Assembly (NCBI GenBank): GCA_965197585.1
Contig: OZ240215.1
Location: forward strand, 3,040,001 to 3,104,000
Length of the DNA stretch: 64,000 bases
Direction of reading: 5' to 3'
DNA from: Dehalococcoidia bacterium
Lineage (GTDB): Bacteria > Chloroflexota > Dehalococcoidia > Plut-88900
Shown piece after piece: positions 1 through 42,063 of the stretch. How positions within the stretch are numbered: the first letter of the stretch is position 1; every line of letters begins with the position of its first letter. A model generated the notes under the pieces. The model worked only from the letters and a program-made list of their open reading frames with translations, searched no databases and was not told where the DNA came from. Made by a program: the position numbers and the translations under genes.

Positions 1-2
1 AG

Positions 3-25
3 CCCTCTCCCATCGAGGGAGAGGG
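3..25. repeat. REP-like palindrome, family A (CCCTCTCCC-ATCGA-GGGAGAGGG)
   Basis: 9-bp perfect stem; related copies at 14910-14936, 27688-27745 and 37529-37567, each after a gene end. Confidence 0.8.
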
Positions 26-40
26 GACCGGCCACCGTGG

Positions 41-20149: not shown

Positions 20150-20184
20150 GTGTGTGGGGTGTGTGACAGGCGTGGGCCACCCCT

Positions 20185-20220
20185 CGCTCGACCCTTCGAC
20201 TCGCCGCTCAGGGTGAGCGG
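20185..20220. repeat. REP-like repeat family C (CGCTCGACCCTTCGAC...GCTCAGGGTGAGCGG)
   Basis: Second copy at 22122-22176 carries a 21-nt insertion. Confidence 0.7.
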
Positions 20221-20979: not shown

Positions 20980-21020
20980 AACAGTCAAACTCCTAGTGTT
21001 GAGTGAGGGCCGTTCTGCGT

Positions 21021-21848
21021 TTAGCTCACGGCGTATTTGTCGCCGCGCTCCTCGACTCGGCCTTCGTTGACGAGTTTGATAAGGTGCACCTTGACCTGGC
21101 CCTCGGCCTCGGAGAGGAGATCCTTGTCGAGTTCAGGGTAGATGGCCTTGACGAGGCTTTCGATGGTGTCCCGGCCCTCGGAGAGGTAGGTGAGGACCTG
21201 TTTCTCCCGCTCCATCCGGTGGTCTAAAAGCTCCTTGATCTTTGCCTGGGGCTGGTTCACCGGAGACCCGTGGCCCGGGTATAGGGCGCTGATATCCAGT
21301 GGCTGAAGCTTGCGCAGGGAGTCGATGTACTTTGCCATGTCCCCGCGGTCTGGGCTGACGGCGGTGGTGCCGGTGCCGAGAATGTGGTCGCCGGTAAAGA
21401 GGGACCGGTTGCTGCGGTTGAGGACGCAGGTGTGGCCGTGGGTGTGGCCCGGGGTGTGAATCAGATCCAGCTCGACGCCCCCTAGGTTGATCACGTCACC
21501 GTCCTCAAAAGCCTCGTCGACGCGGGTGTCCTCAAAAGCCTCGTTGGCCGTGTCGGCGTCATCTCGGTGGATGATGATTTTGGCCCCGGACAGCTGTTTC
21601 AACCGCTCTGCGCCGCCAAGGTGGTCGGGGTGGGGGTGGGTAAGGATGATGTATCGGAAATCGGGGTTGCCGAGCTCTTTGAGCTGGTCGAGCCTGCTGT
21701 TAATGGAATTGTCGTCCCCGTTGCCCGTGTCGATGAGAACGCCTTCGCCCTCGGTGAGGAGGTAGGAGTTGGGCGGGTAGTGTTTGAAGAAGAATGATCC
21801 GTCCTCTATAGGGACGTGGAGGGAGTGAAGGCCGGGGGCTAGCTCCAT
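21021..21848 (-). CDS. MBL-fold metallo-hydrolase (LACTB2-like)
   Basis: THPHPDH, TPGHT, FTGDHILG, YPGHG, C-terminal winged-helix segment. Confidence 0.9.
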   Translation of the reverse strand: MELAPGLHSLHVPIEDGSFFFKHYPPNSYLLTEGEGVLIDTGNGDDNSINSRLDQLKELGNPDFRYIILTHPHPDHLGGAERLKQLSGAKIIIHRDDADTANEAFEDTRVDEAFEDGDVINLGGVELDLIHTPGHTHGHTCVLNRSNRSLFTGDHILGTGTTAVSPDRGDMAKYIDSLRKLQPLDISALYPGHGSPVNQPQAKIKELLDHRMEREKQVLTYLSEGRDTIESLVKAIYPELDKDLLSEAEGQVKVHLIKLVNEGRVEERGDKYAVS

Positions 21849-21953
21849 TTTGGGGCTCCTTGTATAGCGGTGTCAGGTTGAAAGGATATGGGGGGAGAGG
21901 GTGGGGACGCAAGGGGTTGGTGGCACAGTGGGGGAGGGAGGTCTCGGTGGGGG

Positions 21954-21976
21954 CTTTTGATTGACTCAATCAAAAG
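21954..21976. promoter_or_regulatory. Perfect 23-bp palindrome, candidate operator
   Basis: CTTTTGATTGA-C-TCAATCAAAAG, 11-bp arms. Confidence 0.55.
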
Positions 21977-22142
21977 TTCGTGCCTGTATGATTGTTCTCC
22001 GGGAAAATTGTTCGCCATCTTTCTGGGATGGGGGAGCCGGCGATGGCGATGGAGATTGGATGGGCATGGGAGATTGCGGTTCCTTTCGTGGGTGGTGGTG
22101 GCTTTTGTGGGCGCTTCGATGCGCTCGACCCTTCGACGCTGC

Positions 22143-22805
22143 TCACGCCACGGCGCATCTTCGACAGGGTGAGCGGGTGAATGGGGGGGCTGGGGAGGGG
22201 ATGGAAGGTCCCGGACGGTTGCGCAGAAAGACGGCGACGCCTGCACCGATGCCTGTGGTTCGCCACAGCGGATGTTCCACATCGGCGACGACTCTGCGAC
22301 AGCCCCGAGCTTCTGGGAGGATGTGGAGGAGACGCGAGGAAATCTCGGTGTGGGGCAGTCTCGACCACCAGAAGTGCCCGACCATTCGGAGATATGGGGG
22401 CGTGGACTCGATACCGTCGCTGGGTGGAATGAGCTCTCCGAGGGCTACGACGGCGGAGTCTCTGGGCACAATGGCCCTGTTGAGCAGCATGACACCGTGC
22501 TCGTGGGCGTCGCCTGAGGGGGCGAGGATGGTGCGCCGGGTAAGTGGGGCGCGCACTTGGCAGGGGCACTTGGAAAGGGCAAGCCAGTTTTTGTCCGGGA
22601 ACCTTCCATAGCCGGTCACTGGGACCGGGCGGAACGATGATTGATCGCTGCGGAGGCGGAGGCGTTCGGCCTTGGGGCAGCGCGTGTAGTGGGTGTTGAG
22701 ATGGGGACAGGGCGAATAGGGATTGGGGAGGAGGCGCGTGCCGGTTGCCGGGCGGTCCCATACCGCACGGGGACGACGGGGCCTATGTAGGCTTATGCAA
22801 CTCAT
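22143..22805 (-). pseudogene. Probable decayed terminase-large-subunit nuclease fragment
   Basis: RDSAVV...HFWW..LPH...CRRVVAD[7-aa insert]TGIGAGVAVFL; removing 21 nt restores DATGIG; N-terminal half looks non-coding. Confidence 0.45.
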
Positions 22806-22884
22806 GGGACTCCTTCCGCCAGAGGCGGATGTTCCATATTCCTTATCCTGATTAGGGCCGACATGGGTGTCGGGCCTGCGGGAG

Positions 22885-22914
22885 AATATAGTACAAAAGT
22901 TTTGATTGGGTCAA
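22885..22914 (-). promoter_or_regulatory. Promoter with LexA-type box
   Basis: TTGACC-18 bp-TATATT on minus strand; GTAC-N4-GTTT (22891-22902) abuts the -10. Confidence 0.5.
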
Positions 22915-22988
22915 GGGGGTGATGTCACAATGGGGAGGGCTGGTGGCACAGGGGAGAGGGATGGATAGGCCGTACTCCGGGGGTCGAC

Positions 22989-24809
22989 TTGTATAATGGA
23001 CGGACGGTCTATGGTCAGGCAAAGTTGGGGGTAACCAAATTGTCTAAAGCGACAAGACAGCTGAATCCCCTGCGTCTCTGCGTCCTTGGCCTGATTCTCC
23101 TGGCCTTCCTCGCCGCCTGCAGTTCCGACGCACCGTCGGCGACTCCTACCTCCGACAGACCTACGGCCACGATCTCACCCACGGCCACCGTCTTGCCTAC
23201 CGCCATCCTCTCGACCACTGCGGCGCCCACACCTCCCAGCACACCACCCGACCTGGACAGGGAAGCGCTGGTTGCCCTCTTCAATGCCACGGATGGTGAA
23301 AACTGGGAGAACAACGAAAACTGGCTGACCGACGCGCCACTCGGCGAATGGCGCGGCGTCACTACTAACGGCAAAGGCCGCGTTGTCGAACTGTATCTCA
23401 AAGGGAACAGGCTGAGTGGAGAGATACCGGCGGAGTTGGGCAACCTCACCAACCTGGAATCTCTGGACCTCGGCGGGAACGGGCTTAGCGGTGGGATACC
23501 GGCAGAGCTGGGCGACCTCACCAACCTGAAGTTCCTGAACCTCAACGGGAACGGGCTTAGCGGTGGGATACCGGCAGAGTTGGGCAGCCTCACCAACCTG
23601 GAAACGCTGAAACTCGGCGATAGCGGATTGAGCGGGGAGATACCGGTGGAGCTGGGCAACCTCGTCAACCTGTGGTGGCTGGACATCAGCGGGAACGGGT
23701 TGAATGGGGAGATACCGGTGGAGTTGGGCAACCTCGTCAACCTGTGGTGGCTGGACATCAGCGGGAACAGGTTGAATGGGGAGATACCGGTGGAGTTGGG
23801 CAACCTCGTCAACCTGGAAGAGTTGCACCTCAGCAATAACCGGTTAAGTGGGGAGATACCGGTAGAGTTAGGCACGCTAGTGCACCTGAGAATACTGTCC
23901 CTCGACGGAAACAATTTGAGCGGTGCAATCCCACCGGAGTTTGGCGACCTCACTAGCCTTGAATCCTTGTCCCTCGATGATAACAAGCTGACTGGAGAGG
24001 TCCCACCGGAGTGGGATAACCTTGCCAGTCTGGTACTACTGACCCTCAACTCGAGCCAGCTAAACGATTGTATATCGGACCTGGTGTACGAAGCGCTTCG
24101 TGATAGGGGCAGCGTCAGGCAATGCGTTGCCGTAGAGACAGGCGAGAACGAAGCGCTGGTCGCCTTGTACAATGCCACTGACGGTCCAAACTGGAATCGC
24201 AATGACAACTGGGGGAGCAGCGCTCCGATCAGCGATTGGTGGGGCGTATCTACTGACCGCGACGGCCGTGTGGCAAGATTAGACCTCTTCCGGAACGGGT
24301 TGAGCGGGGAGTTGCCGCCGGAATTAGGTAGCCTTTCCAACATGAGATCGCTGAGGCTCGTCAGAAATAAATTGAGTGGAGAGATTCCACCCGAGTTGGG
24401 CAATCTGGCTAAGCTGAGAATTTTGCAACTGGAGGGGAACGGGTTGAGCGGAGAGGTACCGCCGGAGTTGGGTGACCTCGCCAACCTTAGAGTGCTGAAA
24501 CTGTCACTGAACGGGTTGAGCGGGAAGATACCGATGGAGTTGGGTGACCTAACCAGTCTGCAGGTAATGCAACTAGGCTATAACCAGTTGAGTGGGGAGA
24601 TTCCGCCGGAGATTGAGAACCTCACCGATCTGCGCTGGCTGCATTTCAGCCGAAATGAGTTAATCGGGGAAGTGCCGGCGGAGTTGGGCAACCTCACCAA
24701 CCTGAGCAGGTTAAACATCAGCCAGAACCAATTGCGCGGGTGCATACCACCCAGTCTGCAATACAAGTTGGATTCAGTCAGTAAGCTAGGTGGTCTGCCT
24801 TACTGCTAA
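22989..24809 (+). CDS. Leucine-rich-repeat lipoprotein (plant-type 24-aa LRR)
   Basis: LAAC lipobox, P/T linker, two EALVAL(F/Y)NATDG..W..W.GV caps, many LxLxxNxLSGEIPxELGNL repeats; start probably near 23040. Confidence 0.9.
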   Translation: MYNGRTVYGQAKLGVTKLSKATRQLNPLRLCVLGLILLAFLAACSSDAPSATPTSDRPTATISPTATVLPTAILSTTAAPTPPSTPPDLDREALVALFNATDGENWENNENWLTDAPLGEWRGVTTNGKGRVVELYLKGNRLSGEIPAELGNLTNLESLDLGGNGLSGGIPAELGDLTNLKFLNLNGNGLSGGIPAELGSLTNLETLKLGDSGLSGEIPVELGNLVNLWWLDISGNGLNGEIPVELGNLVNLWWLDISGNRLNGEIPVELGNLVNLEELHLSNNRLSGEIPVELGTLVHLRILSLDGNNLSGAIPPEFGDLTSLESLSLDDNKLTGEVPPEWDNLASLVLLTLNSSQLNDCISDLVYEALRDRGSVRQCVAVETGENEALVALYNATDGPNWNRNDNWGSSAPISDWWGVSTDRDGRVARLDLFRNGLSGELPPELGSLSNMRSLRLVRNKLSGEIPPELGNLAKLRILQLEGNGLSGEVPPELGDLANLRVLKLSLNGLSGKIPMELGDLTSLQVMQLGYNQLSGEIPPEIENLTDLRWLHFSRNELIGEVPAELGNLTNLSRLNISQNQLRGCIPPSLQYKLDSVSKLGGLPYC

Positions 24810-25104
24810 GTGCCCGATACCCCTATATGGCGCTAGCCCCCACCCCCTGTGACACGACCCCCTTGCTCTCCCTACCCCACCCCTTGTATCGTTGGTTCAT
24901 ATTAACTGTGGCTACATCTGGCTGTCCCCGCATGCAGCAACAATCGGGGCGCCGCACCATTTTCCGCTACCTTTCCCCTTTAAGTCGGCCCACACTCGCC
25001 ACCCGACGAACAATCAACCACATAGCTAGTTTCCTTGATTGCCCGCGTCGGCTTTGATAGTCATATGTCAACTTTGTCGGTTGCGCCGCACGGCCACGCT
25101 ACAT

Positions 25105-25134
25105 TTGACCCCCCTTCGCGTACGTCCATATAAT
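25105..25134 (+). promoter_or_regulatory. pheS promoter
   Basis: TTGACC-18 bp-TATAAT. Confidence 0.6.
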
Positions 25135-25173
25135 TGCCCCGTAATTTCGTAGCCCCTTTTTCGTAGATTCACC

Positions 25174-26211
25174 ATGATGCAGCAGGTTGAAGAGCTTACT
25201 TCCAGGGCCCTTTCGGAGCTTGAGCCGTTGGCCGAGCCCGAGGCGCTGGAGCAGTGGCGCGTCTCGTATCTCGGGAGGAAGGGGTCGCTGACGCAACTGC
25301 TGAGGGGGGTGAGCTCGTTGCCGGTGGAGGAGAGACGGGATGCGGGGTCGGCGGCGAATAGGGCAAAGAACCGGCTAGAGGGGGCCCTTTCCGACAAGGA
25401 GGAGGTGCTCAAGCAGCAGGAGCTTTCCAAGAGGCTCGGGGAGGCCATCGACGTCACGCTGCCGGGCCATCCCGTCGAGCTGGGACGCCTGCACCCGACC
25501 ACTCAGATGCTCCGGGAGATATGCGAGGCCTTCAACAGCATGGGGTTCCAGGTGGTCGAGGGACCGGAGGTCGAGTGGGACTACTACAACTTCGAGGCGC
25601 TGAACATCCCCCAGGGCCACCCGGCCCGAGACATGTGGGACACCCTCTGGATAGACTACGAGACCGACGACGGCCAGCGGCCGATGCTGCTCCGTACACA
25701 TACCTCGCCGATGCAGATACGGGTGATGGAGAGCCGGGAGCCGCCCATCCGGGTGATAGTCCCCGGCCGCGTGTACCGCTACGAGGCCACCGACGCCACC
25801 CACGAAAGCATCTTCTTCCAGGTTGAGGGCCTCGCTGTCGACAAGGGGATAACCTTCGCCGACCTGAAGGGCACTCTGTTTCAGTTCGCCAGGATGCTCT
25901 TCGGCGCCGAGCGGAAGGTCAGGTTCCGCTGCGACTACTTCCCCTTCGTCGAGCCGGGCGTCGACATGTCCATCGACTGCTTCCTCTGCGAGGGCCGAGG
26001 GTGCCGGGTGTGTAGCGGGACAGGGTGGATAGAGATAATGGGAGCGGGCATGGTGCACCCCAAGGTACTTGAGCGCGTGGGCTATGATCCCAGCGTGTAC
26101 ACGGGGTTCGCGTTCGGGCTCGGGCCTGAGCGGATTGCCATGCTCAAGTACGGCATAGACGACATCAGGCTTTTCTATTCGAACGACATACGGTTCCTTA
26201 GACAGTTTTAG
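25174..26211 (+). CDS. pheS: Phenylalanine-tRNA ligase alpha subunit
   Basis: [42 protein letters not shown]. Confidence 0.98.
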
Positions 26212-26221
26212 GAGGCCCGTC

Positions 26222-27679
26222 ATGGTAAGCACTATGCCGTCCCGTTCCCAGGAGATAAGGAGCAAGCTGCGCCACCCGATAATCGACTCGGACGGGCACA
26301 ACCTGGAGCTGAACCCCGCCCTGCTGGACTACGTGCAGGACATCGGCGGTCGGGACGTCAGGGACCGTTTCGGGGAGATGCTGAAGTTCAGCGAGAAGCA
26401 AGAGTGGGTCGAGATGTCCGACGAGGCCCGGCGCTACAACTGGCTCACCGCCCCGGCGTGGTGGGGGATGCCGGCCAAGAACACCTATGACCGGGCCACT
26501 GCGTCGCTGCCTAACCTGTTGCACCGTAGAATGGACGAGCTTGGCATCGACTACGCGGTGATTTACCCGACTTGGCGCCCGGGCCTGATGCGCTTCCAGG
26601 ACGAGAGTGACGACGATATAAGGCGCATCTCCTGCCGGGCCTTGAACGCCTACCACGCCGACATCTACGGCGAGTATTCGGACCGCATGACCCCCGCGGC
26701 CATGATCCCCATGTACACGCCTGAGGAAGCCATCGACGAGCTGGAGTATTCGATTAAGACGCTTAAGCTGAAGGTCCCGGTGATCGCGAGCCTCGTGCGC
26801 CGGACTATACCGAAGCTGGAGGCCGAGGCCCCGGGCATAGCCCATCACGTGCATCGGCTGGACCCCCTGGGCCTGGACAGCGACTACGACTACGATCCGT
26901 TCTGGGCCAAGTGCATGGACCTTGGGACTGCTCCGGCGTGCCACGCCAGCGCGTTCGAATGGGAGGCGCAGGGCTCGATATCCAGCTACGTGTACAACCA
27001 CATCGGCGCGTTCGCAAAGGCCAGCGAGGCGTTCTGCAAGGCCATGTTCATGGGCGGCGTGACCAGGCGGTTCCCCGATCTGAACGTAGCCTTCCTGGAG
27101 GGTGGGGTGGGGTGGGCCTGTTCGTTGTACGCGGGGATCATCTCTCACTGGGAGAAGCGGAACAGCCGCGAGATCTGGAAGCTCGACCCCAACACCGTCG
27201 ACAAGGACATGATGCTCGGTCTGATCGACAAACATGGGCACAAGTCGATGCAGTCTAGGCGGGATGACATCGGGCGGATGATCGACGCAGGAGACGCGAC
27301 TCCCCGCCAGGTCGACGACTGGCACCGCGTGCAGATGGAATCGAAAGAGGAGATGCACGACCTGTTCGTCAAGCCGTTCTACTTCGGGTGCGAAGCTGAT
27401 GACCCGATGAACTCCTGGGCCTTCAACTCGAAGGTGAATCCGATGGGTGCGAAGTTGAAAGCCGTGTTCAGCTCGGATATCGGGCACTGGGACGTGCCGG
27501 ACATGCGGGAGGTGGTGGAGGAGGCCTACGAGATGGTCGAGCACGAATTGATGACCGACTCGGACTTTGAGGACTTCGTATTCACCAACGCCGTCCACCT
27601 GTACGCAGACATGAACCCGGACTTCTTCAAGGGCACGGCGGTGGAGTCGGATGCAGCCAAGGTATTGAATGGGGTGTGA
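26222..27679 (+). CDS. Amidohydrolase_2 family protein (copy A)
   Basis: IIDSDGH, YDYDPFW, AFLEGGVGW, FGCEADDP, FSSDIGHWDVPD. Confidence 0.9.
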   Translation: MVSTMPSRSQEIRSKLRHPIIDSDGHNLELNPALLDYVQDIGGRDVRDRFGEMLKFSEKQEWVEMSDEARRYNWLTAPAWWGMPAKNTYDRATASLPNLLHRRMDELGIDYAVIYPTWRPGLMRFQDESDDDIRRISCRALNAYHADIYGEYSDRMTPAAMIPMYTPEEAIDELEYSIKTLKLKVPVIASLVRRTIPKLEAEAPGIAHHVHRLDPLGLDSDYDYDPFWAKCMDLGTAPACHASAFEWEAQGSISSYVYNHIGAFAKASEAFCKAMFMGGVTRRFPDLNVAFLEGGVGWACSLYAGIISHWEKRNSREIWKLDPNTVDKDMMLGLIDKHGHKSMQSRRDDIGRMIDAGDATPRQVDDWHRVQMESKEEMHDLFVKPFYFGCEADDPMNSWAFNSKVNPMGAKLKAVFSSDIGHWDVPDMREVVEEAYEMVEHELMTDSDFEDFVFTNAVHLYADMNPDFFKGTAVESDAAKVLNGV

Positions 27680-27687
27680 GATGGAAT

Positions 27688-27798
27688 ACCCTCACCCTAG
27701 CCCTCTCAAGCCTCGGCGCACCTGCGACCCATCGAGGGAGAGGGGATTGGACCCCTCTCCGCCCTGCCTCTGGGTTCCTGCCTCTGTAGTAATGACGG
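27688..27798. repeat. Family A repeat with 21-nt insertion, plus degenerate family B repeat
   Basis: ACCCTCACCCTAGCCCTCTC[21 nt]CCATCGAGGGAGAGGGG then CTCTGGGTTCCTGC...AATGACGG. Confidence 0.7.
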
Positions 27799-27814
27799 GA
27801 GAAGAGATCGGAGA

Positions 27815-29284
27815 ATGGTAGGCACGAAGGGCTCACGGAGCCAGCAGATACGGAGCAGCCTGAAGCATCCGATAGTCGATGCTGATGGGCATATGCTGGA
27901 ACTTACCCCCGTGCTCTCGGACTACGTGTGCCAGGTGGGCGGCGCCGACGCCCGCGACCTGTTCGATAAGTCGATGGAAGGGGCTGCGGAGACGGGCAAT
28001 GCCGCTCTCGAAAATGGGAAGACGTGGTTCGAGATGACCCTGGAGGAGAAGAAGGAGGAGTGGGCGTCGGCACTGCCATGGTGGGCCATGCCTACCCGCA
28101 GCGCGCTGGACCGGGCCACGGCCACGGTGCCCAGGGTCCTCAACGACCGGATGGACGAGCTGGGTCTCGACTATGCGGTGCTTTACACCACCACGGGGCT
28201 TGCGTTCGACCGGATAGAGCCGCAGGAGCAGAGGCTCATCGTGTGCCGGGCCATAAACGCTTACGCAGCGGACCTTTACGGGCCGTACTCGCGCCGGATG
28301 ACGCCCGCCGCCATCGTGCCCATGGACACGCCGGAGATAGCCATCCGGGAGATGGAATACGCGGTCAACGAGCTAGGGTTGAAGGTGATCATGCTGCCGG
28401 GCCGCGTGGAGCGGCCAATTGCCAAGTACCGGGATGAGTACCCGGGCGCCGAGCGGTACATCCGGAAGATGGACGTGATCGGGTTGGACAGCGACTATGA
28501 CTACGATCCGTTCTGGAAGCGGTGCCAGGAGTTGAAGATGGTGCCCGCGTCCCACGGCAGCGATGCCGGATGGGGCGCCGTGAGCGTATCCAACTACGTT
28601 TTTAGTCACCTTAGCTCGTTTGCATACGCCCACGAGACGTTCTGCAAGGCGCTGTTCCTTGGCGGGGTGACGAAGCGGTTCCCGGGTCTGAACTTCATGT
28701 TCCTGGAAGGTGGTGTGGCCTGGGCATGCAACCTGTACTCGGACCTGATAGGACACTGGGAGAAGCGGAACGGGAAAGAGATTGGGAGGCTGGACCCCCG
28801 GAACTTGGACATCGAACTGGCTATGGAGCTGGCTCGGGAGTACGGCGAGGGCCGAATATTGGCCCACCTGGACGAGGTGCGGGCCAATTTCGCAGCGCCC
28901 CGCCCCACCCCTCCCAACACCGATGATTGGTCTCACGTTCCCATGGAAAGTGTCGAGGACATGCTGGACCTGTTCGTCGAGCCCTTCTACTTCGGATGCG
29001 AAGCCGACGACCCAATGAACGCGTGGGCCTTTGACTCGAAGGTTAATCCGATGGGGGCCAAGTTGAAGGCGGTGTTCAGCTCGGATATCGGGCACTGGGA
29101 CGTGCCGGACATGCTGGGGGTGGTGGAGGAGGCCTACGAGATGCTGGAGCACGACCTTATGACCGAGGAGGACTTCAGGGCCTTCGTGTTCGAAAACGTG
29201 GTGAAGATGTATGGGGAGGTGAACCCGGACTTTTTCAAGGGCACGGTGGTGGAGTCGGAGGCTGCGAGGGTTTTGCATGGTTAG
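27815..29284 (+). CDS. Amidohydrolase_2 family protein (copy B)
   Basis: IVDADGH and the same conserved motifs as copy A. Confidence 0.9.
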   Translation: MVGTKGSRSQQIRSSLKHPIVDADGHMLELTPVLSDYVCQVGGADARDLFDKSMEGAAETGNAALENGKTWFEMTLEEKKEEWASALPWWAMPTRSALDRATATVPRVLNDRMDELGLDYAVLYTTTGLAFDRIEPQEQRLIVCRAINAYAADLYGPYSRRMTPAAIVPMDTPEIAIREMEYAVNELGLKVIMLPGRVERPIAKYRDEYPGAERYIRKMDVIGLDSDYDYDPFWKRCQELKMVPASHGSDAGWGAVSVSNYVFSHLSSFAYAHETFCKALFLGGVTKRFPGLNFMFLEGGVAWACNLYSDLIGHWEKRNGKEIGRLDPRNLDIELAMELAREYGEGRILAHLDEVRANFAAPRPTPPNTDDWSHVPMESVEDMLDLFVEPFYFGCEADDPMNAWAFDSKVNPMGAKLKAVFSSDIGHWDVPDMLGVVEEAYEMLEHDLMTEEDFRAFVFENVVKMYGEVNPDFFKGTVVESEAARVLHG

Positions 29285-30782
29285 CACGAAGCCGTCCCGG
29301 AGCCAGGAGATACGGAGCCGGGTGGGGCACCCGATCATCGACTCCGACGGGCATACGCTGGAGGTCATGCCCCTGGTTGTGGAGTTCGTGGGGGAGGTCG
29401 GTGGAGCGAAGATGAAGAAGCGGTATGAGGAAGGGCTGGCCCAGGCGGTCGGTGTCCACTGGCACGAGATGTCGCAGGAGCAGCGTAACTATGAGTTCGT
29501 TACGGCGCCCGGATGGTGGTTCGAATCGCCCAAGACGCTAGACAGGGTAACTGCGACGATTCCGAAGCTGCTGCACTCCAGGATGGACGAGATCGGGATA
29601 GACTACGCAGTGCTGTACCCAACGCAGGGGCTCTTCTTCGATCGGATACCGGACCCCGAGGTGCGGCAGGCCGGGTGTCGGGGGCTCAACGCTTACCTGG
29701 CCGAGATATACCGACCCTACGCCGACAGGATGACACCGGCGGCTGCTATTCCAATGCAGACACCGGAGATGGCGATAGAGGAGCTGGAGTATGCCGTCGA
29801 CGTGCTTGGGCTGAAGGTTGCGATGATCGAGGGCCGGGCGATGAGGCCGCTGATCAAGGTGGAGAGGGAGTTCCCGGAGCTTGGCAACGTGGGCCGGAGG
29901 ATGGACCTCCTGACCATAGACAGCGACTATGACTACGACCCGTTCTGGGCCAAGTGTGTCGAACTGAACGTGGCCCCTGCTTCCCACGCCGCGAACATGG
30001 GCTGGGGCACCCGCTCAACCTCCAACTACATGTACAACCACCTTAACACCTTCTCCGTGGCCCACGAGTCGCTGGCGAAGGCGCTGTTCCTGGGTGGGGT
30101 GACCAAGCGGTTCCCGGAGCTCAGAGTGGCGTTCCTGGAGGGGGGAGTCGGGTGGGCGTGCAGGCTGTTCTCTGACATCATCGGGCACTGGGAGAAGCGG
30201 GGCGCAGTCGGAATAAGGCAACTCGACCCCCGGCACCTCGACGTTGAAGCGGTGATGGGATTCATTGCGGAGAAGGGTGAGCCGTCCCAAAAGGCTCGGA
30301 TGGAAGAGATACGGAAATTGTACGTAGTCGGTGAGCCGGCGCCGGAAGAAATCGACGACTTTTCCCGGGTCCCGATGGAGCGGCCCGAGGAGATGCTCGA
30401 CCTGTTCGTGGATCGGTTCTTCTTCGGCTGCGAGGCGGATGACCCGATGAACGCGCATGCGTTCAACACGAAGGTCAACCCGATGGGAGCGAAGCTAAGG
30501 GCGATATTCAGCTCGGACATCGGGCACTGGGACGTGTCGGACGTCCGGGAGGTCGTCGAGGAGGCCTACGAGCTGGTGGAGCATGAGTTGATGACCGACC
30601 AGGACTTCCGGGACTTCACCTTCACCAATGCGGCACACTTCTACGGGGACATGAACCCGGACTTTTTCAAGGGGACGGTTGTGGAGGAGGAGGTGGGGAG
30701 GGAGTTGGGGGGTGGGGGGATGTCCCCACCACCTCTGGATTCCTGCGAAAATAGGAATGATGCTAGTAGAGAATTATGTTGA
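29277..30782 (+). CDS. Amidohydrolase_2 family protein (copy C)
   Basis: Same motifs; overlaps copy B stop; C-terminus reads through a G tract into a family B repeat. Confidence 0.9.
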   Translation: MVSTKPSRSQEIRSRVGHPIIDSDGHTLEVMPLVVEFVGEVGGAKMKKRYEEGLAQAVGVHWHEMSQEQRNYEFVTAPGWWFESPKTLDRVTATIPKLLHSRMDEIGIDYAVLYPTQGLFFDRIPDPEVRQAGCRGLNAYLAEIYRPYADRMTPAAAIPMQTPEMAIEELEYAVDVLGLKVAMIEGRAMRPLIKVEREFPELGNVGRRMDLLTIDSDYDYDPFWAKCVELNVAPASHAANMGWGTRSTSNYMYNHLNTFSVAHESLAKALFLGGVTKRFPELRVAFLEGGVGWACRLFSDIIGHWEKRGAVGIRQLDPRHLDVEAVMGFIAEKGEPSQKARMEEIRKLYVVGEPAPEEIDDFSRVPMERPEEMLDLFVDRFFFGCEADDPMNAHAFNTKVNPMGAKLRAIFSSDIGHWDVSDVREVVEEAYELVEHELMTDQDFRDFTFTNAAHFYGDMNPDFFKGTVVEEEVGRELGGGGMSPPPLDSCENRNDASRELC

Positions 30783-31005
30783 TCGTAATGGTGGCGGTGC
30801 TCACGCGCATGTCATCTGAGGGCACTTGGGTAAGCCTCGGCTTTCCGCACTGGTCGGCTTTCCATGGATGCGTTTATACCGATCTGCCCCCCACAGTCCT
30901 AGGCGGTTAATGCCAAGTTGTGACCTCACTAGTGTGTTGCTATGATGTGGCCTGTATTTCCTGCCAACTCGGTGAGGACTAGAAAAGAGAGTGAAGGAGC
31001 GAGTT

Positions 31006-31281
31006 ATGGTGGCAGAGATTCGTTATCTCACCTTGGACGAGAAGATGAATGGGATATTGGAGGAGCGCATCTTTAAGTATGAAGATCGCTACGAAATGTC
31101 CTCCTGTGAGATGGCTAAGGCTCTGTCAAACGGCACTGAGAGAGAGACGGCGGAGAAGTTGAGGTGGATGTTCGACTATCACGCTCTGGAATACATCCGA
31201 AAACAGATCCACACGAGCGGAACAATTGGGATAACTACAAGTTCATCCATGAGAAGCGGCTTGCCGAACACCCATTTGTAG
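31006..31281 (+). CDS. Putative antitoxin (TumA-like)
   Basis: IFKYEDRYEMSSxEM...G..E....W pattern; GAAGGAG RBS; lower GC. Confidence 0.5.
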   Translation: MVAEIRYLTLDEKMNGILEERIFKYEDRYEMSSCEMAKALSNGTERETAEKLRWMFDYHALEYIRKQIHTSGTIGITTSSSMRSGLPNTHL

Positions 31282-31697
31282 ACCCGTGCAAGCCCCATAC
31301 TCTCCAGTACTACGAGAGTAGCCACAACACTACCGTTGTCGAAGGGTACGTGTTCTGTAAACAGGGTGTCGTCCTCGAAGTAGAGAAAAGGCTTGAAAAG
31401 ACAATTGTGGCGGGCAGGGCACAAGTCCGCGGATTGCAATATCGTTACGTAGCGTGGATTCCGCGGGACTCGTCACCCAGAGGGACACCAATTTTACGCT
31501 ATCACAACATTCACGAACGTGACGATGACTATCATCACCGGGTGTTTAATCCCCAAACGGGCGAGCAAATTCTCTACGAGAAGCTGGAACGGTCCCAGTT
31601 CCCCGTGATGAGTGACATCCTCAATGAAATAGCAGTCATTCTAGAATGCTATCCGGTAGAGCATGTTCTATGCTCCGATAGTGTGCCCGATCATTAA
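31164..31697 (+). CDS. Putative toxin (DUF6516/TumE-like)
   Basis: YRY...ILRYHNIH....YHHR...P.MSDILNEI; overlaps the upstream gene; start uncertain. Confidence 0.5.
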   Translation: MDVRLSRSGIHPKTDPHERNNWDNYKFIHEKRLAEHPFVDPCKPHTLQYYESSHNTTVVEGYVFCKQGVVLEVEKRLEKTIVAGRAQVRGLQYRYVAWIPRDSSPRGTPILRYHNIHERDDDYHHRVFNPQTGEQILYEKLERSQFPVMSDILNEIAVILECYPVEHVLCSDSVPDH

Positions 31698-31860
31698 AGA
31701 AATCCGCTCCTCAAAGTCTCTCCCCTGCCCCCTTGCCACAGCCTCACTTTGAACCGATATTAGTCGATTTAGATCCATGCTTTATAATGCAAAATAACCT
31801 TTAGCAGGATTGGATTCGCCCCTACGCGGAACGGGGACAAAAGGCCAGGAGGAACGGACA

Positions 31861-33318
31861 ATGGTAACTACTAGATCTTCCCGGAGCCAGGAGATACGGA
31901 GCAAGGTGGGCCACCCGATAATCGACTCGGATGGGCACACCCTGGAGCTGTCGCCCGTGCTCTCGGACTACGTATATGAGCAGGGCGGCGCCGACGCCCG
32001 GGACCTGTTCGAAGAGATGATGAAGGGCTCGACGGAGACGGGGGCGGCCGGAAAGACCTGGTTCACCATGACGCCGGAAGAGCGTAAGGAGAACTGGCAT
32101 CCGGCGACGCCCTGGTGGTTTGCACCCACGTCCAACGTTCTGGACCGGGCCACGGCCACCGTGCCGAAAATCCTGAACGAGCGCATGGACGAACTGGGAA
32201 TGGACTATGCGGTCCTGTATACCACGCTGGGTCTCGGGTTTGACCGTATCCAGGGTTTCGAGCAGAGGCTTATCGTGTGCCGGGCTATGAACGCCTGCGC
32301 GGCGGACCTTTACCAGCCCTATTCGCACCGCATGACGCCCGCGGCGGTGATACCGATGGACACGCCGGAGATCGCCATCCGGGAGATGGAGTACGCGGTA
32401 AACGATCTTGGGCTGAAGACGATAATGCTGCCTGGGCGCGTGAATCGGCCCATCCCCAAACACCTGCAGGAGCACCCGGAAGCCGAGGACGTAGCCCGCT
32501 ACATCGACGTGATCGGCTTAGACAGCGAGTACGACTACGATCCCTTCTGGGCCAGGTGCCAGGAGATGGGCATAACGCCCGCCTCCCACGGCAGCGACTT
32601 CTTCTGGGGAGCGGTTTCCACTTCCAAGTACATGTTCAATCACCTGAGCGCCTTCGCCCACGGCCACGACACCTTTGCCAAGGCCCTGTTCATGGGTGGG
32701 GTGACCAAGCGGTTCCCGGGCCTGAACTTCATCTTCCTTGAGGGAGGAGTCGCCTGGGCGTGCAACCTGTACTCGGACATAATAGGTCACTGGGAGAAGC
32801 GCAATGCCCGGGTCATAGGCAGGCTCGACCCCCGACATCTCGACCAGGAGATGATACTGGACCTCGTGCGGGAATACGGCGAGGAAATCATACAGTCGAA
32901 GATCGATGAGATCCGGGAGATGTACGCCACCCCCGACCCTCACCCCGCAGAGCTGGACGACTGGTCTAACGTACCCATGGAGAACATCGAGGAGATGATG
33001 GACCTGTTCGTGGAGCCGTTCTACTTCGGGTGCGAGGCGGATGACCCGATGAACGCCTGGGCCTTCAACTCCAAGGTGAACCCGCTGGGCGCAAGACTGA
33101 AGGCAGTCTTTAGCTCGGATATCGGGCACTGGGACGTGCCGGACATGCGTGAGGTCGTGGAGGAGGCGTACGAGCTGGTGGAGCATGAGCTTATCAACGA
33201 AGACGACTTCCGGGACTTCATGTTTACCAACACTGTCAACCTCTACGGCAAGGTCAACCCCCAGTTCTTCGACGGCACGGCTGTGGAAGCAGAGGCCAGG
33301 GAGCTGCTGGGCCGGTAA
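31861..33318 (+). CDS. Amidohydrolase_2 family protein (copy B')
   Basis: AGGAGG RBS; shares PVLSDYV..GGADARDLF, MDTPEIAIREMEYAVN, MLPGRV, ASHGSD with copy B. Confidence 0.9.
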   Translation: MVTTRSSRSQEIRSKVGHPIIDSDGHTLELSPVLSDYVYEQGGADARDLFEEMMKGSTETGAAGKTWFTMTPEERKENWHPATPWWFAPTSNVLDRATATVPKILNERMDELGMDYAVLYTTLGLGFDRIQGFEQRLIVCRAMNACAADLYQPYSHRMTPAAVIPMDTPEIAIREMEYAVNDLGLKTIMLPGRVNRPIPKHLQEHPEAEDVARYIDVIGLDSEYDYDPFWARCQEMGITPASHGSDFFWGAVSTSKYMFNHLSAFAHGHDTFAKALFMGGVTKRFPGLNFIFLEGGVAWACNLYSDIIGHWEKRNARVIGRLDPRHLDQEMILDLVREYGEEIIQSKIDEIREMYATPDPHPAELDDWSNVPMENIEEMMDLFVEPFYFGCEADDPMNAWAFNSKVNPLGARLKAVFSSDIGHWDVPDMREVVEEAYELVEHELINEDDFRDFMFTNTVNLYGKVNPQFFDGTAVEAEARELLGR

Positions 33319-33345
33319 GCACACGATTCCCGATTGGAGAGAGAA

Positions 33346-34788
33346 ATGATCAGCGCAACGCCATCCAGGTCCCAGGAAATCAGGCGCAAGCTCGGGCACC
33401 CGATTATCGATTCGGACGGGCACACCCTTGAGCTAAGCCCCATCCTGCTCGACTTTGTCGAGAAGATAGGCGGAGGTGATATCAAGAAGCGCTACGAGGA
33501 GGCGTTCCGAGAGGCGTTTAACCGGCGATGGTTCACCATGTCGGCTGAGCAACGGCGCAACGAGTTCGCCACGGCCCCCGCCTGGTGGGTCATGCCCACC
33601 GAGAACAGCCTGGACCGGGCCACTGCCTCCCTGCCTCGACTACTCAACGGGCGGCTCGACGAGCTTGGCATCGACTACGCTGTTCTGTATCCCACACGCA
33701 GCCTTCTGCTCGACCGGATTCGCGATCCCGAGGTGAGGCGGGTCGGGAGCCGAGCTGTGAACGCCTACCACGCCGAGCTATACGGCAGCTACTCCAAGAG
33801 GATGACCACGGCGGCGGCCATTCCCATGCACACGCCGGAAGTCGCCATAGAAGAGCTGGAATACGCCGTCAACGAGCTGGGTATGAAGGTGGCCATGATC
33901 GAGGGCCGGTCCCTGCGTCCCCTCGCCAAGGCCGCCGACGCCCCGGAGCACCTGGCTTACGTCAACGCCCGCATGGACCTGATCGGCATGGACAGCGACT
34001 ACGACTACGACCCGTTCTGGGCCAAGTGCCTGGAGCTTAACGTAGCGCCCGCCTCCCATGCGGCCAACTTGGGCTGGGGCACCCGCTCCACGTCCAACTA
34101 CATGTACAACCACATGGCCACCTTCGCCCTCGCACACGAGCCCGTCGCGAAGGCGCTGTTCATGGGCGGCGTCACCAAGCGGTTCCCGGGCCTGAACATC
34201 GCCTTCCTGGAGGGGGGCGTCGGGTGGGCGTGCCGTCTCTATGCGGACATGGTGGGGCACTGGGTAAAGCGCAACGGCGTCGACATCCACAAGCTCGACC
34301 CCCGGCACCTGGACGTCGACTCGCTGATGAGCATGATTGAGGAGAGCGGCGAGCCCTCGCAGAAGGCTCGGCTCAAGGAGATACGGGACCACTACCTGGC
34401 CGGAGAAACTGCCCCCGAGGAGCTGGACGACTGGTCGGACGTGCCGATGGAGCGGGCCGAGGAGATGCTGGACCTGTTCATAAAGCCCTTCTACTACGGC
34501 TGCGAGGCGGATGATCCCATGAACGCCCACGCCTTCAACTCGAAGGTGAACCCGATGGGAGCGAGGCTGAAGGCGGTGTTTAGCTCGGACATCGGGCACT
34601 GGGACGTGCCGGACATGCGGGAAGTGGTGGAGGAAGCCTACGAGATGGTCGAAGACGAGCTGATAACGGCAGAGGACTTCCGGGACTTCACCTTCACCAA
34701 TGCCGTCCACCTCTACGCGGACATGAACCCGAACTTCTTCAAAGGCACGGTGGTGGAGTCGGCGGCGGGGGAGGAGCTGGGGGGCTAG
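33346..34788 (+). CDS. Amidohydrolase_2 family protein (copy C')
   Basis: Shares KVAMIEGR, NVAPASHAANxGWGTRSTSNYMYNH, GEPSQKAR with copy C. Confidence 0.9.
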   Translation: MISATPSRSQEIRRKLGHPIIDSDGHTLELSPILLDFVEKIGGGDIKKRYEEAFREAFNRRWFTMSAEQRRNEFATAPAWWVMPTENSLDRATASLPRLLNGRLDELGIDYAVLYPTRSLLLDRIRDPEVRRVGSRAVNAYHAELYGSYSKRMTTAAAIPMHTPEVAIEELEYAVNELGMKVAMIEGRSLRPLAKAADAPEHLAYVNARMDLIGMDSDYDYDPFWAKCLELNVAPASHAANLGWGTRSTSNYMYNHMATFALAHEPVAKALFMGGVTKRFPGLNIAFLEGGVGWACRLYADMVGHWVKRNGVDIHKLDPRHLDVDSLMSMIEESGEPSQKARLKEIRDHYLAGETAPEELDDWSDVPMERAEEMLDLFIKPFYYGCEADDPMNAHAFNSKVNPMGARLKAVFSSDIGHWDVPDMREVVEEAYEMVEDELITAEDFRDFTFTNAVHLYADMNPNFFKGTVVESAAGEELGG

Positions 34789-34879
34789 GGCAAGGGCGAC
34801 CTCTGATGAGCCTGGCGCACCTTTATCGCGCCGCGCCCTGTCACGCTATAATGTGACGTCGTTACGCTAGGAGGAGTTC

Positions 34880-35085
34880 TTGAACAAAATTGAGGCACAC
34901 AAACTGGACGAAAAGGTACAATTAAACGGAAAACTTGGTACCGCGCTACATGAATTGTTCAAGCCACTCGGGGGAGTGGATCTGGAAATTCCGCCTAGGG
35001 AGCCGATGCCCGAGCCGCCGAAGTTTGACTAACCCTACGGATGTTGATCCTAATACAAATGCAATTGCCGATTCGAGGCGAGTCA
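34880..35085 (+). pseudogene. FitA-like antitoxin remnant (50 aa) followed by frameshifted VapC/FitB start
   Basis: 34880-35032 encodes ...LGTALHELFKPLGGVDLEIPPREPMPEPPKFD; 35041 reads MLIL/(D)TNAIADSRR; TATAAT at 34847 flanked by GTCAC/GTGAC; AGGAGG RBS. Confidence 0.55.
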
Positions 35086-35139
35086 CGCCGCATATCGGAA
35101 AAGATTGCAGAATTCCGGTGTCGCCTCGGTAGCTAACCC

Positions 35140-37521: not shown

Positions 37522-37528
37522 GGGAAAT

Positions 37529-37567
37529 TCACCCTCACCCTAGCTCCCTCCCATCAAGGGAGAGGGA
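37529..37567. repeat. Family A REP-like repeat
   Basis: TCACCCTCACCCTAGCTCCCTCCCATCAAGGGAGAGGGA after pheT. Confidence 0.7.
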
Positions 37568-37587
37568 ATAGAAGGCGAGATATTGGC

Positions 37588-38673: not shown

Positions 38674-38697
38674 GCTATTACCGCCTGATAATTTGCT

Positions 38698-40071: not shown

Positions 40072-40075
40072 GGTT

Positions 40076-40540
40076 TCAGCCGTCCTTAGCTAAGTTGTTT
40101 CTCTCCACGGCAAGGAGCTTGTTAAGCCGACGCTGGTGCCGCTCCTCTCCCGAGAATTGCGCCCCGAGAAAGGCCGTCACCACTTCCCGCGCCAGCTCTC
40201 CACCTATGATCCTCGCGCCAAGACACAGCACGTTCATGTCGTCGTGCTCCACGCCCTGGTGCGCCGAGTAGGTGTCGTGGCACATGCAGGCCCGCACGCC
40301 CCGAACCTTGTTGGAGGTGACGCACGCTCCGACGCCGCTTCCGCAGACCATGATCCCTCTCGTGACCTCTCCCTCCGCTACGGCGCGGGCCACGGCTTCC
40401 GCGTAGTCCGGGTAGTCGTCTCCCGGGTGGAAGTCATGGGCGCCTAAGTCGAGCAACTCGTGGCCCTGAGCCTCGAGCCAGGGCTTTAACTCTTCCTTCA
40501 GGGGCAAGCCGGCGTGGTCGGCGCCTATGGATATTCGCAC
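40076..40540 (-). CDS. rpiB: Ribose 5-phosphate isomerase B
   Basis: GADHAG, DDYPD, CGSGVG, EHDDMNVLCLG, ERHQRRL. Confidence 0.95.
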   Translation of the reverse strand: MRISIGADHAGLPLKEELKPWLEAQGHELLDLGAHDFHPGDDYPDYAEAVARAVAEGEVTRGIMVCGSGVGACVTSNKVRGVRACMCHDTYSAHQGVEHDDMNVLCLGARIIGGELAREVVTAFLGAQFSGEERHQRRLNKLLAVERNNLAKDG

Positions 40541-40610
40541 AGTCTCGATTCCTTGTTGTAGTGGTTCGCCTCTTGTCTGGGAAAGTATATCGAGACTGGG
40601 AGATGCGGGT

Positions 40611-41952: not shown

Positions 41953-42063
41953 GGGGGTTGGCCCAGGGGGGATGGATTCACGCTCCGCCAAAGGCGGACT
42001 TTCAGCACTGCGCACCTACAGCCCGACTACTCGGGAATGACGGAGAGGGTGGGGTGGAAGGGA

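Follow-up and report, generated by a model that had tools for sequence, protein, structure and literature searches.

To our knowledge, mobile DNA of this size has one described precedent, the small dispersed repeats (SDRs) of Nostoc, from 2008. Elhai et al. (2008) reportedly found SDR4–6 in Nostoc punctiforme and other Nostocaceae as sequences of 21–27 nt in many dispersed copies, which are said to nest and to have hairpin potential; we know of no solution to their mechanism. The mobile GC clusters, or double-hairpin elements, of fungal mitochondria are tens of nucleotides long, GC-rich and hairpin-forming, and are inserted in other sequence by an unknown mechanism. SDR5 inserts between the third and fourth nucleotide of HIP1 (PMC4390886), and N. 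punctiforme is among the genomes named as containing RAYT (PMC3116915). According to a passage in PMC5861425, SDRs are reported not to occur outside Nostocaceae, and our literature search found no description of such elements outside cyanobacteria. REP and REPIN sequences are 20–40 bp long (PMC3733652, PMC3337134), and IS200/IS605 elements pass through single-strand circular intermediates, carry subterminal structures and target the lagging-strand template (PMC6006769).

We examined a 64,000-nt stretch (the window) of the genome of an uncultured Dehalococcoidia bacterium of the Chloroflexota (G000), in which three inserts of about 21 nt had been defined against empty sites from the letters alone. 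All three are real: the empty counterparts are the type-c host copy around 20184–20220 for the insert at 22145, the type-b copy at 1–27 for that at 27708, and the paralogue c3034 for that at 22260 (Table 1). The identities given between them (17/21 and 16/21) are correct on a count of letters, and the inserts at 22145 and 27708 are both preceded by CTC. Among the related copies proposed, the one at 22815 and the nested pair stand, whereas the one near 34808 is unconvincing. The family proved far larger than these few sequences.

Table 1. Units, host repeats and the larger element in the window (a slash marks an insertion point).
Feature	Positions	Strand	Structure and occurrence
Host repeat b, empty	1..27	+	From sequence reading
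Host repeat c, empty	20184..20220	+	Insertion point would fall between 20209 and 20210; conserved, also empty in G005
Host repeat c, filled (REP-like hairpin)	22122..22176	+	CGCTCGACCCTTCGA..GCTC/AGGGTGAGCGG
21-nt unit	22145..22165	+	Hairpin ACGCC-AC-GGCGC, A, tail TCTTCGA, then C; after GCTC in type-c host hairpin repeat; identical copies at three other genome places, same host type
~750-nt multicopy non-coding element	22186..22937	-	15 or more copies or fragments genome-wide; copies in 9/9 genus genomes
21-nt unit, tail TGTTCCA	22260..22280	+	Inside ~750-nt element; missing from 1/9 aligned paralogues (c3034), doubled in another (c63)
22-nt unit	22815..22836	+	TCCGCC-AGA-GGCGGA + tail TGTTCCA; close to end of ~750-nt element; predicted DNA hairpin -6.1 kcal/mol, z = -3.5
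Host repeat b + unit, ~75-nt block	27685..27760	+	From orthologue comparison; in this genome only, absent from the orthologous site in G005, G002, G003, G008 and G006
21-nt unit	27708..27728	+	AAGCC-TC-GGCGC, A, CCTGCGA, then C; in type-b host hairpin; insertion context CCTAGCCCTCTC/CCATCGAGGGAGAGGGG
Nested pair in host repeat a	41979..42022	+	Outer unit CACGC..ACTGCGCACCTACAGC interrupted by inner unit
Inner 22-nt unit	41984..42005	+	TCCGCC-AAA-GGCGGA + CTTTCAG; sits in outer unit's hairpin; its 21-mer found likewise at five other places

The ~750-nt element that surrounds two of these units had been read as a coding remnant, with the insert at 22260 in frame. Because substitution rates are equal across its three codon positions (7.03, 7.02 and 6.41 differences per column), the element is non-coding, and with no codon periodicity around the insert the notion of a frame has no meaning there. 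Its long minus-strand ORF matched no Pfam family, and Rfam searches of the window and of 21800–23100 gave no meaningful match. Public Logan contigs over 21001–41000, all of them short, list no 21–22-nt difference at the four units, which is evidence in neither direction.

In each unit a GC-rich hairpin of 4–6 bp with a loop of 2–4 nt is followed by a single A and then by a tail of 7 nt with the form XY-T-N-C-Y'X', giving a total of 21–22 nt; the units start with ACGCC, CCGCC or TCC(G/T)CC. A regular-expression census recovered 173 units of 20–22 nt in the source genome, against 5 in a reversed-genome control, and the insert at 22145 has 25 copies at two or fewer mismatches where about 0.003 would be expected by chance (calculated). 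We sampled nine genomes of the genus (six of them single-contig), including a species of about 90% identity (G005), and 12 genomes of the family. The load is about 150–200 copies per genome in this bacterium and its nearest relatives, and 7 of the 9 genus genomes have 12–70 and 21–112 matches to two unit patterns (0–2 for reversed-pattern controls); two sister members of the genus, G006 and G008, are unit-poor. The family is thus lineage-restricted and present in high copy. Of 159 unit clusters in the source genome, 147 are single, 11 are pairs and one is a group of four; no master locus or unit array was found among them. Orientation showed no correspondence to neighbouring genes, as judged roughly from crude ORF-based gene calls. 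Forms of 29 nt also exist, with one hairpin and two tails.

Complementarity holds for both outer pairs of the tail in 153 of the 173 G000 units and in 132 of the 147 G005 units, with five tail types (TC/GA, CT/AG, TG/CA, CG/CG and CC/GG). Among 60 distinct units of G005, pairing in the tail helix reaches 95.8%, and both pairs vary on both sides. The tail covariation score, drawn from five subfamilies that share descent, is 0.304, compared with 0.110 ± 0.014 after shuffling (0 of 500 shuffles reached 0.304) and at most 0.114 in slid controls. The free tail position in the two genomes is T in 172 cases, A in 66, G in 56 and C in 26. The covariation of the outer pairs points to the tail as a putative second mini-hairpin. 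The 6-bp unit hairpins are predicted to be stable, with energies of -6.1 to -6.4 kcal/mol and z values between -2.9 and -3.8; hairpins of the form ACGCC-NN-GGCGC fold no better than their shuffles (z ~0), and nearest-neighbour folding gives no 2-bp tail helix.

Distances between anchors in the host repeats of G000 are multimodal, with steps of about 21 nt. Among 71 anchored copies of host b, 63 are empty and 7 filled; host d has 59 empty and 19 filled. The 108 anchored copies of host c comprise 78 that are empty, 23 with a gap longer by about 21 nt (22 of these are units and one is not), 6 with two units and 1 composite, and host a has 25 empty copies, 11 with one insert-sized gap (10 being units), 3 with two units and 1 with three.

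An unbiased comparison of G000 with G005, in which 1,300 of 1,400 2-kb chunks were aligned (2.51 Mb) and clean indels of at least 5 nt were counted, gave the same step. A peak at 21–22 nt holds 33 of the 185 clean indels, 18 being 21 nt long and 15 being 22 nt, and the lengths beside it are scarce (3 at 19 nt, 2 at 20 and 1 at 23). The unit core test recognizes 26 of the 33, a figure that inspection by eye raises to at least 29; the additional sequence is in G000 in 20 cases and in G005 in 13. The two lengths are about equally common, so no fixed length of 21 holds; nearly all units lie in non-coding repeats, and the original prediction of a frame-preserving element is unsupported. Taking units one by one, 107 of 173 in G000 could be mapped to G005, with 52 filled in both and 20 precisely empty in G005; 102 of the 147 in G005 mapped to G000, with 47 filled in both and 13 precisely empty in G000. 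Comparison with outgroups reveals gains. The site G000:1509537 is filled in G000 only (empty in G005, G002 and G003), as is G000:114641 (empty in G005, G002 and G001), and at G005:189348 a unit is shared by G005, G002 and G003, with G000 and G007 empty. The many further copies, together with precise empty sites in paralogues and relatives, are the evidence by which the earlier proposal was to be judged, and they support a very small element moved in trans.

Units are inserted base-precisely and in one orientation, and without target-site duplication, because junction microhomology is 0–2 nt in 27 of the 33 indels. Their targets form a limited set, mostly set points in REP-like host hairpins or the hairpin–tail joint of an older unit. 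As units enter that joint, nests reach three deep, and a single orthologous site has no unit in G002, one in G005, two in G000 and three in G001. A test for a target motif had been suggested; our search yielded neither a simple motif nor a rule of pairing between tail and target. TC precedes the insertion point in 82 of 128 units with TC/GA tails, and the other subfamilies occupy other sites. The strand bias of the units says nothing about the units themselves, because empty host repeats share it.

A search for reverse transcriptase, HUH or recombinase genes co-occurring with the units had also been suggested; in the families searched, none was found to go with them. The Y1/RAYT transposase (PF01797) was found in 0 of 12 family genomes by a search whose control matched 6 of 14 reference genomes, and TnpB had no match in the source genome. 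An IS110-type recombinase, tried as a candidate mover, is present in G000, G003, G004 and G005 and missing from the unit-rich G001, G002 and G007, and so shows no link to unit load. Separately, an IS481-like element of about 21 copies was assigned from motifs alone.

We hypothesize, with a probability of about 0.6, that the units are mobile DNA elements of very small size, a non-autonomous family moved in trans by an enzyme as a folded single strand. The unit would travel as folded single-stranded DNA, which a structure-specific enzyme acting in trans would cut and rejoin in the ‘peel and paste’ style of HUH enzymes; this enzyme would lie outside all of the families searched. Secondary spread would follow when host repeats themselves move or recombine with one another. 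It is conceivable, if doubtful, that this constitutes a new mode of DNA mobility in which two stacked hairpins are the whole transposon. The unit would leave and enter DNA as a single strand, possibly by way of a dumbbell-like minicircle, and the enzyme responsible would belong to no known transposase family or be a housekeeping nuclease or ligase. The joint between the hairpins would then serve at once as the end that is recognised and as the favoured target, accounting for the nesting.

Spread could instead have been mostly passive, with a few ancient insertions followed by amplification of filled mobile host repeats and short-patch gene conversion, so that filled and empty orthologues would record conversions and not transpositions. 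Host repeats are indeed gained as blocks, as at 27685–27760, and unit variants often track the host type (host d nearly always carries CCGCCTCGGCGGATCT.CGAC), a pattern that amplification together with the host would produce. Multicopy sequence flanks 145 of the 173 units, so gene conversion from a filled paralogue could account for any one orthologous gain, and for the gain at G000:1509537 there are donors carrying the identical insert; that site nevertheless retains a locus-specific host variant directly adjoining the insert. Nor can passive spread make the first copy in each of the many unrelated contexts (at least 12 by eye), or nests of different subfamilies. Identical 20–21-mers also occur in non-homologous hosts, such as ACGCCTCGGCGCATCTTCGA in hosts a, b and c, and the tail covariation points to selection on the unit itself. 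We consider this account unlikely as the main explanation, while giving it real weight.

The other alternatives are far less probable. That the units are scars, a left end joined to a right end after excision of a larger element, would suit their position close to the ends of larger multicopy non-coding elements (as at 22815–22836) and the entry of new units between hairpin and tail, as if into a cargo bay. Host-anchored gaps of up to 120 nt, however, contain either a whole number of units or other small repeats, never a hairpin and tail separated by cargo, and orthologous states are empty or filled, never a large element, which makes such footprints very improbable. If a reverse transcriptase had retro-inserted a small structured RNA, the size, structure and copy-and-paste-like spread of the units would fit; RVT_1 (PF00078) is nonetheless absent from six of the seven unit-rich genomes (G000, G001, G002, G004, G005 and G007) and present in the unit-poor G006 and G008, and we give this idea even less credence. 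Least credible of all is a local origin, in which an extra hairpin and tail would arise in place through tandem duplication or replication slippage. The nests do read hairpin–hairpin–tail–tail, and the 29-nt derivatives may have arisen in this way, but gains come as single steps of 21–22 nt, inner and outer units of a nest are set apart by their loops and by compensatory changes in the tail, and most inserts have no similarity to their flanks.

Beyond the genus, the same unit type lies inside hairpin repeats of unrelated metagenome contigs, some of them AT-rich, which on the more speculative reading of a new mode of mobility would suggest spread across phyla. In viral contigs, 16 pattern matches included none with a host-type flank, and their location in inverted repeats (1 of 16, against 2 of 64 shifted controls) is compatible with chance.

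These units bring SDR-like behaviour to a second, unrelated lineage, with much cleaner evidence in the form of 33 indels, dated gains and a 0–1–2–3 nesting series. They form a distinct peak in the between-species indel spectrum, and remodel both REP-like hairpins and larger non-coding RNA-like elements. How about 21 nt can hold all of the information for being moved becomes a testable question, for which the nearly unit-free sister species offer a natural contrast in the hunt for the enzyme.

Among known systems, the fungal mitochondrial GC clusters differ from the units in residing in an organelle amid AT-rich surroundings, in being larger and in their target duplications, which are reportedly produced. 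The units lack the terminal inverted repeats, target-site duplication and 50–500-bp length of MITEs. They resemble IS200/IS605 elements in having no target duplication, precise empty sites, hairpin dependence, one orientation and a replication-linked strand bias, but they are accompanied by no TnpA or TnpB match, total 21–22 nt, and have neither separate left and right ends nor a fixed tetranucleotide target. Like REP and REPIN sequences, they are short GC-rich extragenic hairpins, high in copy, non-autonomous and probably handled as single strands. REPs are moved by RAYT, a Y1 HUH enzyme absent from all 12 family genomes, and here REP-like repeats are the targets. The GTAG/CGTC tag of REPs is not conserved (GTAG appears on the other strand only in units with A at the free tail position), and whereas a REPIN is an inverted doublet, the units are mostly single and their pairs nested and co-oriented. 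The closest analogue, judged by size and behaviour, appears to be the Nostoc SDRs, and the comparison made in the original prediction is apt. The two differ in host phylum and in target (HIP1 for the SDRs; REP-like hairpins and other units, with no HIP1, here), N. punctiforme has a RAYT, and the units add a GC-rich hairpin with a covarying tail. They share a size class, many dispersed copies, nesting, hairpin potential and an insertion that falls precisely at set places within other repeats.

The source genome (G000) is a single contig of 3,429,519 bp (59.3% G+C), of which the window covers positions 3040001–3104000, and its repeats contain small inserts, here called units: 21–22 nt long, with a short GC hairpin, one A and a 7-nt tail of the form XY-T-N-C-Y'X', the outer pairs of which name the tail types. 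Four REP-like hairpin repeats, hosts a–d, occur with units (filled) or without them (empty). The three 21-nt inserts originally predicted at window positions 22145, 22260 and 27708 are present as described when the letters are read directly, and a related copy placed inside 41984–42022 turned out to be a nested pair; a further copy placed at about 34808 did not convince on inspection.

Units, uninterrupted hosts and neighbouring features (window positions)
Feature	Position	Context
Host b, uninterrupted copy	1–27	
Host c, uninterrupted copy	about 20184–20220	
Stretch holding the leucine-rich-repeat gene	~21862–25100	Not conserved in the closest relatives
Unit ACGCCACGGCGCATCTTCGAC	22145–22165	Inside the host c hairpin repeat, between CGCTCGACCCTTCGA..GCTC and AGGGTGAGCGG
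Third insert	22260–22280	Within or at the end of the ~750-nt sequence 22186–22937
Unit copy	22815–22836	Within or at the end of the ~750-nt sequence 22186–22937
Leucine-rich-repeat gene	22989–24809	606-aa protein made of 72-nt repeats (12 copies)
Five tandem paralogous genes	26222–34700	About 485 aa, Amidohydro_2 domain, 65–80% identical (DNA); same array in relatives
Unit AAGCCTCGGCGCACCTGCGAC	27708–27728	Interrupts host b between CCTAGCCCTCTC and CCATCGAGGGAGAGGGG
Nested unit pair	41979–42022	

The insert at 22145 has 25 copies in G000 within two mismatches and 61 within four. Four kinds of hairpin are found (ACGCC-NN-GGCGC, CCGCC-NN-GGCGG, TCCGCC-NNN-GGCGGA and TCCTCC-NNN-GGCGGA), each followed by one A and a tail of the form TCTNCGA, CTTNCAG, TGTNCCA, CGTNCCG or CCTNCGG. 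A regular-expression census, using a hand-made pattern and covering 2.8 of the 3.15 Mb of the congener G005, counted 173 units in G000 and 147 in G005, compared with 5 and 1 in the reversed genomes; the expectation of further copies thus holds. The true number is higher, since outer units that are interrupted escape the pattern, as does at least one other subfamily (CTC(T/G)CC-TC-(A/G)GCGAG plus CCTACGG).

Both outer tail pairs are complementary in 153 of the 173 units of G000 and 132 of the 147 of G005; the complementary tails fall into five types (TC/GA, CT/AG, TG/CA, CG/CG and CC/GG), and no non-complementary type exceeds four copies. In an alignment of 60 distinct 22-nt G005 units the tail helix is 95.8% paired (one pair CG 31, UA 24, UG 3; the other UA 21, GC 20, CG 16). 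The covariation score of the whole structure, to be read with subfamilies related by descent and letters restricted by the pattern, is 0.304, compared with 0.110 ± 0.014 for shuffles (0 of 500 reach 0.304) and at most 0.114 for slid partners. Nearest-neighbour energies predict stable 6-bp hairpins on either strand (−6.1 to −6.4 kcal/mol, z −2.9 to −3.8); they predict neither folding of the 2-bp tail helix nor a stable 4-bp ACGCC-type hairpin (z about 0). Read on the complementary strand, the tail is XY-G-N-A-Y'X', and TCCTCC/GGCGGA stems have G·A in place of their frequent T·C mismatch. GNA triloops closed by a C–G pair are unusually stable in DNA, and together these features hint that the complementary strand is the one that folds. 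Hairpin and tail types are found in many combinations, which indicates that the two modules recombine. At 890025, 1047080 and other positions of the G000 contig, a single hairpin is followed by two tails (TGTTCCA, then TCTTCGA), 29 nt in all, and the whole block is missing in G005; slippage between the near-identical hairpins of a nested pair, with loss of one of them, may have produced these forms.

We measured the stretch between the two halves of each host in G000, using hosts a–d only as anchors, and the spacings are multimodal. Host b (71 anchored copies) is empty in 63 (7–8 nt), with one insert-sized gap in 7 (28–29 nt) and 1 composite. Host c (108 copies) is empty in 78, with one insert-sized gap in 23 (28–31 nt), two units in 6 (49–51 nt) and 1 composite, and host d (78 copies) is empty in 59, with one insert-sized gap in 19. 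Host a (43 copies) is empty in 25; 11 have one insert-sized gap (30–34 nt), 3 two units (52–54 nt) and 1 three nested units (76 nt), and 3 are composites of two repeats. Insert-sized gaps lack a unit in 1 of 11 cases in host a and 1 of 23 in host c, and all inserts in hosts a–d have the same orientation relative to the host. Host c has two insertion points with one tail type each: 13 CTTNCAG units follow CCCTTCGA and 9 TCTNCGAC units follow GCTC.

An unbiased indel comparison was made between G000 and G005, which are about 90% identical: 1,300 of the first 1,400 2-kb chunks of G005 (2.51 Mb) were aligned to G000 with an affine-gap aligner, and indels of at least 5 nt were kept where the 25-nt flanks matched at 20 or more of 25 positions. 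The lengths of the 185 indels that passed peak sharply at 21 nt (18) and 22 nt (15), with 3 at 19 nt, 2 at 20 nt, 1 at 23 nt and 7 at 24 nt, a split that does away with the fixed length of 21 first proposed. Of these 33, a unit core test accepts 26, and inspection by eye recognizes at least 29 as units, the four non-unit indels being tandem duplications or unrelated sequence; the extra sequence is in G000 in 20 cases and in G005 in 13. Longer indels, of 29, 36 and 42–44 nt, consist of unit derivatives or of two units together. Mapped unit by unit, 107 of the 173 G000 units have an orthologous region in G005 (52 filled in both, 20 precisely empty in G005, 11 absent with poor flanks, 24 ambiguous), and 102 of the 147 G005 units map to G000 (47 filled in both, 13 precisely empty in G000, 11 with poor flanks, 31 ambiguous). 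Precise empty sites in relatives, as anticipated, therefore exist in both directions.

Polarity at four sites was read directly from the presence or absence of the unit in further members of the genus. The units at G000:1509537 (host c; G005, G002 and G003 have an uninterrupted hairpin without a unit) and G000:114641 (empty in G005, G002 and G001) are found only in G000 and are gains under any tree, barring two or three independent base-precise losses. At G005:189348 (host a), G005, G002 and G003 carry the unit, and G000 and the more distant G007 are empty. The site of G000:115160 has no unit in G002, one in G005, two nested in G000 and three nested in G001, and every inner unit differs in tail type from the unit around it. 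Units are thus gained on the time scale of species divergence, and they nest.

The gap position can be shifted by 0 nt in 8 of the 33 indels, by 1 nt in 14 and by 2 nt in 5, so any target-site duplication is limited to perhaps a single base, usually C. The 21–22-nt unit is inserted base-precisely, in a set orientation and free of duplication, at structured sites. Of 128 units with TC/GA tails, 82 are directly preceded by TC and 14 by GGCGC, which belongs to an older unit's hairpin. TG/CA and CG/CG units lie mostly at a hairpin/tail joint, where a GGCG(G/C)(A) arm is followed by a tail-like CTT/TCT..C motif, and CT/AG units follow CCTTCGA or interrupt another unit in its left arm, loop or tail. 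Across the 33 indel junctions and the unit flanks we found no single target rule; in place of the one motif once envisaged, the site differs by tail subfamily.

The cumulative GC skew of G000 is lowest near 2.64 Mb and peaks near 1.04 Mb. Between 1.04 and 2.64 Mb units lie 97 on the minus and 13 on the plus strand, and at 2.6–3.0 Mb 19 on the plus and 4 on the minus; in the rest of the genome there is little bias and a flat skew. With origin and terminus placed from skew alone, the presumed leading-strand sequence carries 129 of the 173 units in the hairpin-to-tail direction, and crude gene calls in G000 gave no link between unit orientation and the direction of neighbouring ORFs. Hosts a–d, filled or empty, are strongly co-oriented with the presumed replichores (mostly minus strand at 1.04–2.64 Mb, plus strand at 2.64–3.0 Mb). 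Because empty hosts share this bias, the strand bias cannot be credited to the units.

The hosts also bear on unit numbers. At an intergenic site, 27685–27760, the entire host b hairpin with its unit is found only in G000, and five relatives have only the neighbouring a-type repeat; REP-like hosts are therefore themselves gained and lost, and part of the unit copy number is hitch-hiking. A flanking 12-mer present at least three times accompanies 145 of the 173 units, and the 12 units with both flanks unique are mostly in diverged host repeats. Host-repeat amplification and gene conversion could then account for most copies and most orthologous differences, with true insertion rare; this is the main rival account, which we consider less likely. 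Identical 20–21-mers occur in unrelated contexts: ACGCCTCGGCGCATCTTCGA in hosts a, b and c, CCGCCTCGGCGGACTTTCAG in host c and a different repeat, and CCGCCAAAGGCGGACTTTCAG within the hairpins of two different kinds of older units. The same unit thus sits in unrelated hosts and is not solely co-copied with them, in keeping with the movement in trans of the original prediction. Structure-guided mobility and host amplification with conversion are not mutually exclusive.

The ~750-nt sequence at 22186–22937 has at least 15 copies or fragments in G000 and copies in all nine genomes of the genus; among nine aligned copies, one lacks the third insert (21 nt) and one has two such inserts. Read on the minus strand, the sequence contains a varying number of modular internal repeats, each about 87 nt long. 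Its long minus-strand ORF has no Pfam family, and the sequence has no Rfam match. Substitutions across the nine copies show no codon periodicity (equal rates, 7.03, 7.02 and 6.41 per column, for the three positions), and multiple frames are open simultaneously on the C-rich strand. It is a non-coding multicopy element, not the coding remnant it was taken for. With 21- and 22-nt inserts equally frequent and the surrounding element non-coding, the idea of frame-preserving insertion falls as well.

Six of the eight other genus genomes have 12–70 matches each to the TCTNCGAC pattern; G006 and G008 have none. Outside the genus this pattern is missing from three further genera of the family and turns up once across 19 further families of the class (reversed controls 0). 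A second pattern, with three-base loops and other tails, has 21–112 matches in the seven unit-rich genomes (G000–G005 and G007), 1–2 in G006 and G008 and 0–3 in the other genera. Matches occur in five of 400 other Chloroflexota genomes. Three of the five belong to one other genus, where the unit family has a minor second focus in the phylum: one genome (G284) holds five identical copies of CGCCTTGGCGCATCTCCGAC, and two congeners one copy each. A metagenome scan gave at least 118 loci with matches; the 80 examined hold 82 matches, many of which sit in apparent genes and may be due to chance. Of the 81 matches that could be tested, 17 are enclosed by inverted repeats of at least 6 bp, compared with 13 of 316 at shifted control positions. 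CCGCC-NN-GGCGG-ATCTTCGAC units stand mid-hairpin repeat at loci L286, L289, L308, L314, L341, L346, L350 and others, on unrelated contigs, some AT-rich, a lead, judged by sequence, to putative similar units inside hairpin repeats of other organisms.

Searches for co-occurring RT, HUH or recombinase genes gave no candidate. Marker-based completeness of the family genomes is about 92%, though several are single contigs, and absences are accordingly to be read as 'not found' rather than as proof: Y1/RAYT (PF01797) in 0 of the 12 family genomes, TnpB (PF07282) in G000, and RVT_1 in G000, G001, G002, G004, G005 and G007. RVT_1 is present in G003, G006 (6 matches), G008 (1), G010 and G011; missing from six of the seven unit-rich genomes and present in the unit-poor G006 and G008, it is anti-correlated with units. 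An IS110-type recombinase occurs only in G000, G003, G004, G005, G009 and G011, a distribution uncorrelated with units. G000 also contains about 21 copies of a ~1.1-kb insertion sequence (for example, 1512686–1513672, 3333415–3334707 and 2784648–2785937), the 329-aa ORF of which looks by its motifs like an IS481/rve-type transposase; several copies adjoin half of a unit-bearing b-type hairpin, as if the element targeted such hairpins.

We put at about 60% the probability that the units are truly mobile and structure-guided, moved by an enzyme that is none of those searched for; within this reading a single-strand route has perhaps half the weight. The unit would be recognized by shape, as two adjacent small hairpins, and the joint between hairpins would look like the one that the ends of the unit form. 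If an enzyme cut and rejoined DNA at this joint shape, it would mobilize the unit and also make older units favoured sites of insertion. HUH single-strand transposition (PMC6006769) follows the same logic, although no such enzyme was found here.

The units lack a tested defining feature of each of three known kinds, REP/REPIN–RAYT, IS200/IS605 derivatives and MITEs. The literature searched, which left out most subscription journals, described such elements from cyanobacteria only, and the occurrence in Chloroflexota is to that extent without earlier description. The nearest known system is the small dispersed repeats of Nostoc, as first proposed; very small mobile repeats of this sort are a known but barely explored kind.
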